From: Elusimicrobiota bacterium
GTDB taxonomy: Bacteria; Elusimicrobiota; UBA8919
Direction of reading: 5' to 3'
NCBI GenBank assembly: GCA_016218625.1
Contig: JACRDL010000009.1
Location: forward strand, 1 to 53,246
Length of the DNA: 53,246 bases
The notes beneath the pieces are model-generated. The model saw only the letters and a program-made list of their open reading frames with translations, did no database searches and was not told the origin of the DNA. The first letter of the stretch is position 1. Each line of letters begins with the position of its first letter. Made by a program: the position numbers and the translations under genes. Positions 24,121 through 44,701 of this stretch are shown here, piece after piece.

Positions 24121-25101
24121 ATGTCAAAAAAGTCCACTATCAAATCACTTAATCTCGCCTGCCAAGAAGCATTAAAAATTCCGTTAGATATTGAAAAAGA
24201 TAAATTTGCAATTCTATCTGACCAGCATTTCGGTGATGGAAACCCGCAAAGTGACGATTTTTTAATAAACAGAGGTATCTATATTTCTGCGTTGAAGTAT
24301 TACTTTGAAAATGATTTTACGCTCATAGAAATCGGCGATGTTGAAGAACTCTGGGAATGCGATTTTGAGAAGATAAATTCCTTTTACTCTGATATTTACA
24401 TTCTTGAAAAAAAGTTTTTTGACAGCGGTCGGTTCTACCGAATTTTCGGCAATCACGATATTTTCTGGAAAAATGAAAAATATCTCAAAAAGTTTCTGCC
24501 GGATTACACCGTTTATGAATCAATTCTATTAGGCGGCAAAATTTTTATTACGCACGGCCATCAGGGCGAGTTTATATCGGATAGGTTATGGAAAATAAGC
24601 CGTTGGTTTGTAAGAAACATCTGGAAAAATATTCAGAGAATTTTGCACATACCTTCAAACGATGCGGTAAAAAATTTCAAGGTTCGTGATATAAAAGAGC
24701 AACTTTTTTACAACTGGGCAAAAGAGAGAAAACTTCTGACCGTATTCGGACATACCCACAGGGCCTTTTTTGAATCGCTTTCCAAGATAGACCGGCTGCG
24801 TTTGAAACTCAAGGAAAAATCGGTATCCGACGAAGAAAGAAGGTTAATAGAAAACCAAATCAATCAATCAATAAGAGACAACAGAAACGGGACGAGAGAA
24901 ACTATTCTTGAAGAAACGCCTGTACCCTGCTATTTCAACGATGGTTGCTGCTGTTACAAAAACGGCATTACCGCCATCGAGATTGAAAGCGGGATTATCC
25001 GTCTGGTAAAGTGGCAAAGCAAAAGCAATGAAAAAACAGTTTTTGAGGAGACAGAACTGTCCCCGCTACTAAAAAAGATTTCTGATATAAAAAGTGTTTG
25101 A
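24121..25101 (+). CDS. Calcineurin-like metallophosphoesterase
   Basis: SDQH, GDVEE, GNHD, THGH, GHTH; the longer ORF overlaps the tRNA so start moved (24103 also possible). Confidence 0.85.
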   Translation: MSKKSTIKSLNLACQEALKIPLDIEKDKFAILSDQHFGDGNPQSDDFLINRGIYISALKYYFENDFTLIEIGDVEELWECDFEKINSFYSDIYILEKKFFDSGRFYRIFGNHDIFWKNEKYLKKFLPDYTVYESILLGGKIFITHGHQGEFISDRLWKISRWFVRNIWKNIQRILHIPSNDAVKNFKVRDIKEQLFYNWAKERKLLTVFGHTHRAFFESLSKIDRLRLKLKEKSVSDEERRLIENQINQSIRDNRNGTRETILEETPVPCYFNDGCCCYKNGITAIEIESGIIRLVKWQSKSNEKTVFEETELSPLLKKISDIKSV

Positions 25102-41788: not shown

Positions 41789-42802
41789 ATGATAAATGTT
41801 GCTATTGTCGGTGCAAAAGGTTATGCAGGAGAGGAACTCATAAAGATTCTTCTGAAACATTCGGGAGTAAAAATTACTTCTTTATCAGGCAGAATGGATG
41901 GGAAACCGAAGCATATATGCGAAATGTATCCATATTTAAAGGGTAATCTTGATATGTTTTGCGAGGATATTGATGAGAAAAAAATTGTCGAAAATGCAGA
42001 TATTATTTTTACCGCCCTGCCGCATATGGTTTCAATGGAAATTGTTTCAAAGTTTATATCTTTGGGTAAAAAAGTAATTGATTTAAGCGCTGATTTCCGT
42101 CTGAAAAACCCTGATATTTATGAAAAATGGTACGGAGTAAAACATGTAAATCCCGGACTTTTGGAAAAAGCGGTTTATGGACTCCCTGAACTTTATAGAA
42201 AAAAAATAAAAAAAGCAAAACTGATTGCAAATCCCGGTTGTTATCCTACGAGCATAATTTTGGGTTGTTATCCCGCGATTAAAGAAAAAATTGCCAAGAA
42301 AAAAGAAATAATTATTGATTCAAAAAGCGGATATTCAGGCGGCGGCAGGGAGTTTGCCAAAAATTACAAAGAACCGAATTGTTACGCATATCAAATCGGA
42401 GGAATTCACAGACATATTCCGGAAATTGAGCAGGAACTGAAATGTCAGATAACTTTCATTCCGCACATAATTCCGCAAGAGAGGGGAATGCTTTCAACTA
42501 TTTATTTGCAATTAAAAAAAGATATTTTCCCACGGGGACTTCCTGCGGTCGCTTTGGAGGATGTTGTTGCGGTTTACAAAAAATATTACGAGAACGAACC
42601 GTTTGTCAGAATAGTAGAAACAGCGATGACAAAAAATGTTGTCAATACAAATTATTGTGATATAGCGATAAATATTGACGGAAAAACAAATAATTTAATC
42701 ATCACATCCGCCATAGACAATCTTGTCAAAGGCGCCGCAGGTCAGGCCGTCCAAAACATGAATATAATGTTCGGCATTGACGAAAAAGAAGGTTTAATAT
42801 GA
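41789..42802 (+). CDS. argC: N-acetyl-gamma-glutamyl-phosphate reductase
   Basis: GAKGYAG, DLSADFR, ANPGCYPT, DNLVKGAAGQA. Confidence 0.95.
   Translation: MINVAIVGAKGYAGEELIKILLKHSGVKITSLSGRMDGKPKHICEMYPYLKGNLDMFCEDIDEKKIVENADIIFTALPHMVSMEIVSKFISLGKKVIDLSADFRLKNPDIYEKWYGVKHVNPGLLEKAVYGLPELYRKKIKKAKLIANPGCYPTSIILGCYPAIKEKIAKKKEIIIDSKSGYSGGGREFAKNYKEPNCYAYQIGGIHRHIPEIEQELKCQITFIPHIIPQERGMLSTIYLQLKKDIFPRGLPAVALEDVVAVYKKYYENEPFVRIVETAMTKNVVNTNYCDIAINIDGKTNNLIITSAIDNLVKGAAGQAVQNMNIMFGIDEKEGLI
42528..42551. mobile_element. 24-nt mini-insert in frame in argC
   Basis: tccc-acg-gggacttcc-tgc-ggtcg, same motif as 1518-1542. Confidence 0.7.
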
Positions 42803-42803
42803 A

Positions 42804-42904
42804 CCCCGCTCCTACTAAATTGTTGTTTGAGAAAATCTGCTTATTGAAAATATCAAATTCTAATTTTGTCAATTTTACTGGTTTTGCAGGAGGGGCGGGG
42901 TGAA
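42804..42904. mobile_element. Miniature CCCCG..CGGGG element at the argC/argJ junction
   Basis: tgaa|ccccgctcct..aggaggggcgggg|tgaa. Confidence 0.75.
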
Positions 42905-44081
42905 TTTTCCGAAAGGTTTTTTTGCTAACGGGTTGCATTGCGGGATAAAAAAAAACGGGAAAAAAGACCTGTCTATTTTTTATTCCGAAAAACCATCTGT
43001 TGCGGCCGGCGTATTCACGAAAAATATTTTTAAGGCGGCGCCCGTGATTATTTCACAAAAAAATATAAAAAATAAAATACATTGTATTGTGGCTAATTCT
43101 GGTTGTGCTAATGCTTGCACGGGTGAAAGGGGAATTGGTGATGTAAAAAAAATATGCGAGTTGACTGCGGATAAATTAAATGTAAAACCAGAAAATATTT
43201 TGGTTGCTTCAACCGGTGTGATTGGTCAGTATCTACCGATGGAAAAAATTGAAAACGGCATTAGGAAATTGTGTTTATATATTCCACCAACTAACCGACC
43301 GAAATCTGCTGTTGAAGGCATTATGACCACAGACACATTTCCCAAGGTTGTTTCTTCTACCTTCTACCTTCTACCTTCTACCCGCTGTACTATTTGGGCT
43401 TGTGCAAAAGGTTCCGGAATGATTGAGCCGAATTTGGCGACAATGCTTTCTTTCATTTTGACAGACGCGCAAATTACAAAAGAAGCATTAAGCCGTGCCT
43501 TGAAAATTGCGACTGAAAAAAGTTTTAATTGTCTGACTGTTGACGGAGATACATCAACTAATGACACAGTTTTTGTTCTTGCTAACGGAGCTGCAAAAAA
43601 TAAACTTATATCTGACGGTAAAAACTTTCAATTATTTTGCGATAAGTTAACTGCTGTTTGTATTGAACTTACAAAAATGCTTGCCAGTGACGGTGAGGGT
43701 GCGACAAAACTAATTGCCATAAATGTTAGAGACGCTAAAAATATCTGTGATGCAAAAAAAATTGCAAAAACGGTGGCAAATTCTCCGCTTGTTAAGACGG
43801 CTATTTTTGGAAATGACGCAAATTGGGGTCGCATAGTTGCTGCAATCGGAAGAAGTGAAGTAATGGTTGATTCAAAAAAAGTTGATGTTTCTTTCAGTAA
43901 TCTCTGTGTCTTCAAAAAAGGTTGCCCTGTTAGTTTTTCGGAAAAAATTGCAAGAAAAATTATATTACAAAAGGTTGTCTCTATAAATATAAACTTGAAT
44001 AGCGGAAAAGAGTATGCAACCGTTTATACATGCGATTTCAGCGACGGTTACATAAAAGTCAACGCTTCATATAGAACATGA
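42900..44081 (+). CDS. argJ: Bifunctional ornithine acetyltransferase
   Basis: NSGCANACTG, STGVIG, TTDT, KGSGMI..ATML, DTSTND, DGEGATK. Confidence 0.95.
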   Translation: MNFPKGFFANGLHCGIKKNGKKDLSIFYSEKPSVAAGVFTKNIFKAAPVIISQKNIKNKIHCIVANSGCANACTGERGIGDVKKICELTADKLNVKPENILVASTGVIGQYLPMEKIENGIRKLCLYIPPTNRPKSAVEGIMTTDTFPKVVSSTFYLLPSTRCTIWACAKGSGMIEPNLATMLSFILTDAQITKEALSRALKIATEKSFNCLTVDGDTSTNDTVFVLANGAAKNKLISDGKNFQLFCDKLTAVCIELTKMLASDGEGATKLIAINVRDAKNICDAKKIAKTVANSPLVKTAIFGNDANWGRIVAAIGRSEVMVDSKKVDVSFSNLCVFKKGCPVSFSEKIARKIILQKVVSININLNSGKEYATVYTCDFSDGYIKVNASYRT

Positions 44082-44701
44082 AAACATATAAACTGAAAAA
44101 AATAGATAAAAAGGCGATAAAAGAAATTGCACTGGATTTGAAAAATGGAAAAATTGCGATTTATCCGACGGATACTATCTACGGTATCGGAACTAATGCG
44201 TTTTGTTTTGAAAGTGTAAAGAAAATTTATAAATTGAAAGGCCGCACCGATAAAAAACCGCTGCCTGTTCTCGTTGATGACATTTCAAAAATTAAAAAAA
44301 TTGTAAGAAAAATTCCGACAGGAGCGTTGCAATTGGCAAAAAAATTTTGGCCGGGACCGCTTACGTTTGTATTTGAAACAAATGAACTCGGCTGTATGCT
44401 TACCGGGGGCAAAAAAAATATAGCAGTAAGAATTCCAGATAACAAAGTTTTACTTTCAATTATAAAAGAAATGACCTATCCGCTTATAGGTACAAGTGCC
44501 AATGTTTCCGGAAAAAAAAACTGCAGATGTCTTTCGGATTTAGATAAAAAAATTCTTAAAAATGTTGATATGATTATAGATGGTGGTGTTGTAAAATTGG
44601 GGAAACCGTCAACCGTTTTGGATGTCAGTAAATTCCCATATATTGTGTTAAGAGAAGGTTGCATATCAAAAAAAGAAATAGAAAAATTCATGAAAATATA
44701 G
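44078..44701 (+). CDS. tsaC: Threonylcarbamoyl-AMP synthase (Sua5/YrdC)
   Basis: PTDTIYG, KGR, WPGPLT, TSAN. Confidence 0.92.
   Translation: MKTYKLKKIDKKAIKEIALDLKNGKIAIYPTDTIYGIGTNAFCFESVKKIYKLKGRTDKKPLPVLVDDISKIKKIVRKIPTGALQLAKKFWPGPLTFVFETNELGCMLTGGKKNIAVRIPDNKVLLSIIKEMTYPLIGTSANVSGKKNCRCLSDLDKKILKNVDMIIDGGVVKLGKPSTVLDVSKFPYIVLREGCISKKEIEKFMKI

Follow-up and report, generated by a model that had tools for sequence, protein, structure and literature searches.

The closest described analogues of the element analysed here, a 97-nt hairpin lying between argC and argJ on a contig of an Elusimicrobiota bacterium (GenBank assembly GCA_016218625.1, contig JACRDL010000009.1, forward strand; the whole stretch of 53,246 nt is referred to as the window), are two groups of short bacterial repeats. 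[quoted passage not shown] The Neisseria REP2 and Borrelia IR repeats are found directly upstream of many unrelated genes, to which they contribute a fused start codon together with a ribosome-binding site, and contain internal stem-loops; for REP2, a promoter is described in addition, the start codon is ATG, and terminal inverted repeats are stated to be absent (Delihas, 2011, PMC3184786). Two further groups are relevant, namely the GTAG-tagged REPs, whose ends in many cases provide a stop codon for the ORF beside them (PMC3733652), and the Rickettsia palindromic elements (RPE), which are translated as part of the protein and are tolerated inside essential genes since the product stays intact (PMC10969869). 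[quoted passage not shown]

Here, we present evidence that the element is very probably a non-autonomous mobile hairpin of the MITE/REP kind which, in this lineage, inserted into the TGAA of the ATGAA start of argJ and duplicated this TGAA. In Elusimicrobiota, Omnitrophota and a few further phyla, the longer forms of the family to which it belongs are almost confined to gene starts. These MITE/REP-like hairpins, the logic of which resembles that of MIRU and REP2, would owe their place on start codons to their own Shine-Dalgarno sequence (SD) and GTG.

Residence on start codons is common to MIRU and the present family, and the 34-codon ORF of the argJ copy ends at GTGA, i.e., in a -4 overlap. 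However, the family described here consists of hairpins with 12-nt inverted arms, a TGAA duplication and an SD and GTG of their own, it occurs in a different host phylum, and only a minority of its copies contain such a relay ORF. We know of no sequence likeness between the two, and MIRUs are described as tandem direct repeats of 46-101 bp without such arms. As in REP2, the gene receives a ribosome-binding site and a start codon, which here are AGGAGG or GGAAGG and, after a 6-nt spacer, GTG; in contrast to REP2, terminal inverted arms are the hallmark of the family. Empty sites, a target duplication and the left-over old start, all observed here, are not mentioned for REP2 in the available part of its description (PMC3184786). 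Given that the argJ copy lies inside an operon, no promoter is implied for it (no promoter scan was run). The stop codon supplied by GTAG REPs is the mirror image of the start supplied here.

The family shares with MITEs and REPs its small size, multiple copies, hairpin-forming non-coding sequence and presence or absence between relatives. Among the properties typical of MITEs, terminal inverted repeats, a target-site duplication with an empty site and a small, non-coding, multi-copy format are all found, whereas no parent insertion sequence, sharing these ends and encoding a transposase, was found around the 10 Y1 and 12 small GIY-YIG genes examined or in 400 kb of a closed genome. Unlike REPs mobilised by RAYT (Y1) transposases, the hairpins have neither a GTAG nor a CGTC tag and are flanked on both sides by TGAA on gene starts and by TAAA, TTAA or TTGA elsewhere, none of the Y1 genes examined is flanked by the arms, and the niche is the start codon rather than the 3' intergenic space of tagged REPs. 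A likeness to RPE is seen in short, 38-nt copies within long open frames and in the few long copies that are in-frame fusions, but most copies, including the one at argJ, replace the initiation site and are not in frame.

Insertion at the start of argJ

In the window, the ATGA that ends argC is followed by 101 nt, CCCCGCTCCT...AGGAGGGGCGGGG and then TGAA, that is, by the element and the second of two TGAA copies that flank it (Table 1). The 12-nt arms form 10 Watson-Crick pairs and one G.U pair. In the 1.81-Mb genome there are only two exact occurrences each of the 13-nt right end and of the 11-nt left end, and both times they form the two ends of such an element on a gene start, which is more than chance would give. 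We take the upstream gene to be argC from its co-linearity with the argC-argJ pairs of relatives (tblastn) and from recognition of its sequence. A search of Rfam with the window copy gave nothing at E <= 10 that came near gathering scores, and 20 loci of the family gave nothing at gathering level except an unrelated tRNA.

Table 1. Features of the argC/argJ junction in the window
Feature	Position	Strand	Source or remark
argC, N-acetyl-gamma-glutamyl-phosphate reductase-like, 343 codons	41771..42802	+	ORF list; stop TGA 42800-42802
Inverted repeat around the element	42796-42816 / 42888-42908		Repeat search
Former argJ start ATG, overlaps argC stop as ATGA, now out of frame	42799..42801	+	Relatives' argJ begins at this ATG
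34-codon ORF, old ATG through element, TGA overlapping new GTG as GTGA	42799..42903	+	ORF list
Left TGAA, 4-nt direct repeat (target-site duplication)	42800..42803	+	Empty sites hold a single TGAA
Element, 97 nt	42804-42900		TGAA on each side
Insert with second TGAA, 101 nt	42804-42904		Follows argC ATGA
Left arm L, CCCCGCTCCTAC, C-rich, anti-SD-like	42804..42815	+	Sequence, inverted-repeat search
Element interior, AT-rich, without internal G-rich arm	42816..42888	+	
Right arm R, GGAGGGGCGGGG	42889..42900	+	With A42888 forms SD AGGAGG 42888-42893; last G is base 1 of new start
Spacer GGCGGG, 6 nt, between AGGAGG and GTG	42894-42899	+	
New argJ start GTG, element's last G + TG of right TGAA	42900..42902	+	
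argJ, 393 codons, MNFPKGF...	42900..44081	+	ORF list
Right TGAA, second direct-repeat copy	42901..42904	+	
Intact ATGA overlap, argJ stop / start of next gene (44078..44701)	44078..44081	+	ORF list; comparison junction

An earlier reading of the window from sequence alone (the sequence-only reading) had proposed that the insertion compensates for itself: the old ATG is out of frame, and the right end of the insert supplies AGGAGG, 6 nt and a GTG in the argJ frame. All these features are borne out by the sequence and the ORF list. The element ends in ...AGGAGG-GGCGG-G, and its last G together with the duplicated TGAA gives GTG-AA, which keeps the original frame and is preceded, at a distance of 6 nt, by a strong SD; the old ATG is left at the 5' foot of the hairpin. 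Because this last G restores the frame behind an SD, argJ retains its full coding sequence and would gain a new initiation site.

The same reading predicted that removal of the insert recreates an ATGA stop/start overlap that opens a protein beginning MNFPKG, comparable to the overlap between argJ and the next gene, named tsaC there, which is indeed intact, and that relatives have such a direct overlap. We searched for argJ in 40 relatives, found it in 27 of them at 48-87% identity, and read the argC/argJ junction in 19 relative loci in addition to that of the source genome (G000). The direct overlap, GATATGAATTT..., with argC upstream of argJ, was found in two genomes of the same genus (G001 and G003) and two of the same family (G004 and G005). 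Two of these junctions, those of G001 and G005, are exactly the predicted empty site ATGAATTTTCCG, and G003 and G004 are each one base off; the junction of G001, GGTTTGATATGAATTTTCCGAAAGG, equals the window minus the 101 nt, and that of G005 is identical. In three other family members (G002, G008 and G009; loci L020, L021 and L045) a DNA-methyltransferase-like gene precedes argJ instead of argC, and here too there is an ATGA overlap, which brings the overlap at an ATGAA start of argJ to 7 of the 10 family relatives. The remaining three (G006, G007 and G010) have argC upstream, an unrelated spacer of 261, 100 or 101 nt, a TAA stop and an ATG start. Neither the element nor a GTG start was found at argJ in any of the 10 family relatives, which represent 6 genera; a similar spacer with an ancestral GTG start, the finding that would have spoken for an old junction, is thus absent from them. 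In one of these genomes (G007, L024), the 100-nt spacer has a different sequence with inverted repeats of its own, GGATAGGGTATAG ... CCCCTATACGC, and may represent another hairpin element, unrelated to the first, that occupies this junction.

Contigs from three other sequencing runs, belonging to two other studies, are ~92% identical to the window in this region (54-56 differences in ~650-700 nt) and run through the insert with no joint, which shows that the insert is real, not an assembly artefact, and is carried by diverged populations. Among the contig rows listed, few of the differences between populations fall within the insert, which we regard as a lead only. In these contigs, 42814 is changed from A to C, which improves the pairing of the arms and is nearer to the family consensus of L, and the changes A to G at 42796 and T to G at 42908 give the bases found in congeners. 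A pattern scan of metagenomes for close relatives of the filled argJ site returned 17 matches, all 17 of them unrelated high-G+C chance matches.

A family of hairpins on gene starts

Within the source genome, copies with the same ends are located at the starts of two genes of contig C107, one of them cstA-like (69 nt) and the other encoding an ABC ATPase (64 nt), and of purD (63 nt, contig C111), and a decayed 96-nt copy is found at the start of mnmE (contig C45). For two of these genes the history parallels that of argJ. The congener G002 has an empty site at the cstA-like gene, 4 of 5 orthologs of which start with ATGAAYTC, and an empty site at purD, AAGCGAAGCGAATATGAATAT, with 5 of 7 orthologs starting with ATGAA; the purD site of G000 reads AAGCGAAGCGAGTATGAA, then 63 nt and TGAA, then TATACTT. 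The genome also contains hairpins of 26-74 nt with similar arms, 4 of 5 of which have matching TAAA or TTAA flanks. Some of the short copies (38 nt) lie within long open frames, where 38 + 4 nt amount to 14 codons.

To estimate the size of the family, we scanned 401 genomes of the phylum for a 16-nt right-end pattern at <=1 mismatch, with the reversed pattern as the control. The pattern matched in 40 of the 401 genomes, with 16 matches in G005, and the control never exceeded one match per genome strand. At <=2 mismatches, G005 and G009 had 28 and 23 matches (control 1 and 0), followed by G002 (7), G008 (6), G017 (5) and G001 (4). In two genomes of Omnitrophota, G401 and G402, there are 124 and 149 arm matches, against 25 and 19 in the control. 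An exact two-ended pattern, with one genome taken per species, retrieved 76 loci, the phyla of which, as titled in the records, are mostly Candidatus Omnitrophota, with three Elusimicrobia/Elusimicrobiota and some Planctomycetota, Verrucomicrobiota and Ratteibacteria; a few high-G+C members of this set look like chance matches.

The elements are 57-186 nt long, non-coding and multi-copy. Copies on unrelated genes of G402 share their interiors (median identity 0.73, maximum 0.99), and in this genome the 106-112-nt class is the 68-nt class with a ~38-nt 3' extension that ends in a second G-rich arm. Most long copies contain an internal G-rich arm (hereinafter M). The idea that only copies with M survive on starts was rejected given that 68-nt two-arm copies are also found there. 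Several insertions are common to genera at orthologous genes, namely those at the ABC ATPase gene (G000 and G005), at gatB (G002 and G005) and at a lolE-like gene (G001 and G005), and an insertion at an ispH-like gene is shared in this way too.

Residence on gene starts was assessed in several ways. In G005, 24 of the 28 right ends open an ORF of >=100 codons at their GTG, and two of the remaining four matches are left arms of listed copies on the other strand. A scan of the same genome for arms only gave 55 matches versus 10 in the control, and inspection of 20 of the 22 new sites revealed five additional elements, each preceded by (A/G)TGAA and followed by TGAA, the other 15 being chance or coding matches. 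Among the cross-phylum loci, 66 of the 75 parsed are open from the GTG to the end of the locus and 2 more correspond to a complete 37-codon rpmJ, compared with open control frames in 0 and 5. Finally, a census that made no assumption on the flanks was performed on 400 kb of a closed genome (26% of the chromosome). It yielded ~26 elements, of which 23 are on starts and all TGAA-flanked; one 68-nt copy is located elsewhere and has TTTA flanks, and a further two pairs are uncertain. The neutral share on starts, derived from 104 gene starts of the form NTGAA and 356 TGAA sites in non-coding DNA, is 0.23, and the 23 of 24 observed correspond to P ~3e-14 under a neutral model which is crude, being based on crude gene calls and excluding the two uncertain pairs. 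The sampled 400 kb contain ~380 crudely called genes, compared with which 23 starts are occupied. The occupied genes are unrelated to each other and include argJ, purD, gatB, rpmJ, L9-like, tsaD-like, aroK-like and ispH-like genes, cobalamin genes and transporters.

For a closer comparison, we curated 25 copies that are <=200 nt long, have a C-rich left arm of 12 nt and open either rpmJ or an ORF of >=100 codons. Their left pentamer is most often ATGAA (15 copies), otherwise a sequence one base away from ATGAA (6), GTGAA (2) or a different sequence (2), and the right flank is TGAA in 24 of 25. Watson-Crick pairs account for 267 of the 300 arm positions, and two arm variants co-vary, with C-G in 11 copies and A-T in 10. 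In ten short copies the two 4-nt flanks are alike, being TAAA, TTAA or TTGA on both sides; matching flanks of varied sequence argue that the 4-nt target duplication is genuine.

An element that carries an SD and ends in G would turn the start codon, where insertion should be lethal, into a safe site for selfish DNA in compact genomes. As for the cause of the start-site bias, it may tentatively be supposed, although we find this rather doubtful, that the element homes on start codons by recognising the region of translation start, where SD and (A/G)TGAA succeed each other much as at the element's right end, that in some Omnitrophota it has taken over the initiation of a considerable fraction of the genes and brought them under a single kind of hairpin, and that alternative L-M and L-R pairings would make this hairpin a genome-wide translational switch, dependent on ribosomes or temperature. 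The family also bears on gene calling, because the genes behind the element start at the GTG after the hairpin and a decoy ATG lies upstream.

Several individual loci show additional features. In one copy (L320, G402:C1:153154-153266) the arms are CCCCGTTACTCC and GGAGTAACGGGG, with several positions changed in both and the pairing still perfect. The gatB insertion in G002 (L164), compared with that in G005 (L103), has ATG instead of GTG as the rebuilt start (GGAGGGGCTGGATGAA), possibly a later improvement of the start codon. In two copies in G005 the left flank itself is an R-like arm followed by TGAA, which gives the impression that another element inserted into an already rebuilt start. Three unrelated genes of G005 (L103, L114 and L144) have a common upstream leader, ...CGTCTAGTGA.AAAA.T.GATTTTTCAATAAA..., preceded by a G+C-rich palindromic sequence; in two of the three loci this leader runs into a GGAGGGG..GGGTGAA start module. 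At the purD start in the source genome (C111, ~394-460), the 7 nt after the internal arm M (TGAATAT) are the same as the 7 nt after R, as if R with its flank were a partial duplicate of M with its flank.

Predicted folding and translation of the rebuilt start

The sequence-only reading had suggested that the terminal hairpin could mask the SD unless ribosomes read the 34-codon ORF from the old ATG. The predicted fold agrees with the first part. In the minimum free energy (MFE) structure of the window copy, 11 of the 12 bases of R are paired with L and the first two bases of the GTG are paired as well, and in 22 of the 25 curated copies 10-12 of the 12 bases of R are paired with L, usually together with the first two bases of the GTG. 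Before R exists, L is paired to the interior at >=8 of its 12 positions in 20 of 25 copies, compared with 5.9 of 12 for shuffled interiors, and 13 copies have z <= -2; the window copy, which has no M arm, shows such pairing at 4 of 12 positions only. An excess of G.U over A.C arm mismatches (15 vs 6) was rejected as a test of structure in the mRNA strand, as it is confounded by the constraint on the SD arm.

The arms would thus pair in the mRNA and hide the new SD and GTG. Given the reach of a ribosome along the mRNA and the location of the argC stop one base before L, we infer that ribosomes finishing argC would cover and melt L and thereby free the SD. Then, either a fresh 30S subunit could bind the freed SD, or the ribosome could restart at the ATG of ATGA, read the 34 codons and restart at GTGA; under either option, the translational coupling of argC and argJ would be kept. 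These two options correspond to the coupling models treated in a review (PMC12548453). The family offers a natural experiment on translation, with dozens of housekeeping genes having their SD in a predicted 12-bp G+C stem, which bears on the choice between the RNA-unfolding and reinitiation models of coupling.

The relay ORF is present in the window copy as had been noted, but it is not a rule of the family. The ORF from the old start ends at a GTGA overlap in only 5 of the 25 curated copies and 13 of 57 clean cross-phylum copies, so that we rejected it as the general trick of the family. In most cases this ORF stops inside the element (17/25 and 35/57); in some it runs past the GTG (3/25 and 4/57), and in 5 of the 57 it is in frame with the gene, a class that was not scored separately in the curated set. 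The lengths of the 57 clean copies show no phase preference (21, 20 and 16 for n mod 3). For copies of this last class, annotation would give the protein a spurious N-terminal extension (MNPALP...); the frame does not depend on length preference. One locus (L291, G402:C1:213127-213970) contains two ~90% alike copies on adjacent cobalamin-salvage-like genes, both in frame, where the old ATG would add N-terminal extensions of 38-40 residues beginning MNPALPNITPCRGD.

Alternative readings and the mobilising enzyme

Several observations weigh against a mobile hairpin that landed on the start of argJ. The four clear copies in the source genome are alike at their ends only, and the interior of the window copy has no significant match in 11 family genomes, with no donor copy seen. 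The MFE fold of this copy (-33.4 kcal/mol, z = -1.94) is modestly unusual, an equally good fold being reached by 9 of 200 shuffles. If the predicted folds hold, a harmless insertion would hardly be expected to place a strong stem over the SD of housekeeping genes. Furthermore, with the relay ORF in a minority of copies and many old starts decayed, the stem cannot in general be opened by reading from the old ATG. Among candidate enzymes, hits to the Y1 transposase profile (PF01797) are present in all 5 genomes checked, yet none of the 10 genes examined has arms of the family within 1.5 kb; 12 small GIY-YIG genes in 5 genomes have no clear bracketing arm, with two weak arm-like matches 200-300 nt upstream of one of them. 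A parent-size class is not apparent either, with no peak above 160 nt in the 400 kb of closed genome (other transposase classes and the remaining 74% of the chromosome were not searched). An 840-nt arm pair in G402, considered as a large parent element, was rejected because it is two separate copies on adjacent genes. Since its hosts are uncultured bacteria of several phyla from groundwater and sediment, the family raises the questions of which enzyme moves it and how phyla are crossed.

The burial of the SD and GTG in 22 of 25 folds, the pre-pairing of L to the interior above the level of shuffled sequences in 20 of 25 copies, the retention of some insertions at orthologous genes across genera, the copy with both arms changed in step and a start-site bias far above the neutral landing model would all fit a shared translational control module, used by the host or self-acting, in which alternative pairings of L, M and R would determine the amount of free SD at many genes together, for instance in response to upstream translation or temperature. 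However, the occupied genes are functionally unrelated, the M arm is missing from the window copy and from many 68-nt copies, close relatives differ in the copies they carry, as they should if the DNA is selfish, and the mismatch excess, being confounded, does not help; we consider such a module, which is compatible with mobility of the hairpin, unlikely. A different chemistry of mobility would be that of a single-strand element of the REP or IS200/IS605 type, inserted by a Y1 (HUH) enzyme 3' of TGAA, in which case the right TGAA would be the element's own end. The sequence TGAA is not palindromic, which is unusual for the duplicated target of a DDE enzyme, and Y1 genes occur in every one of the 5 carrier or relative genomes checked. 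Furthermore, a hairpin with a 4-nt tag recalls the GTAG-tagged REPs (PMC3733652). Nevertheless, the matching flanks of the short copies vary (TAAA, TTAA and TTGA), a better fit to a duplicated target than to a fixed end, no examined Y1 gene is arm-flanked, and the number of Y1 genes does not follow that of copies, G005 having many copies and one Y1 gene, and G003 five Y1 genes and no motif match at <=1 mismatch. This variant appears quite unlikely to us.

It is very improbable that the insert is an ancestral spacer lost from relatives by exact deletion between the TGAA copies. Palindromes between short direct repeats can be lost precisely, and populations ~8% diverged from the window keep the insert, but, since all 10 family relatives lack it, several independent exact losses would have to be assumed versus one gain, and the same pattern of presence and absence is seen at the cstA-like gene and purD. 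Least of all do we favour a translated, in-frame addition to the N terminus of ArgJ of the RPE kind, which we hold to be extremely improbable: reading through from the old ATG into the gene does occur in a few clean copies elsewhere, but the family has no preference for the length phase that it calls for, and for the argJ copy the idea is refuted, the insert with its duplication being 101 nt and the old ATG, out of frame, reaching a stop at 42903. The insertion of a mobile hairpin that rebuilds the start it interrupts is, by contrast, strengthened by the fact that the same element does likewise at many unrelated genes.

A different repeat was observed in the source genome on contig C9 (~140-380 and 24580-24840), where GGACTTCCGTGCCCGCCC... 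is present in several copies and the contig has two Y1 transposase hits (C9:3519 and C9:14237). This repeat may represent a separate family of the REP/RAYT type.

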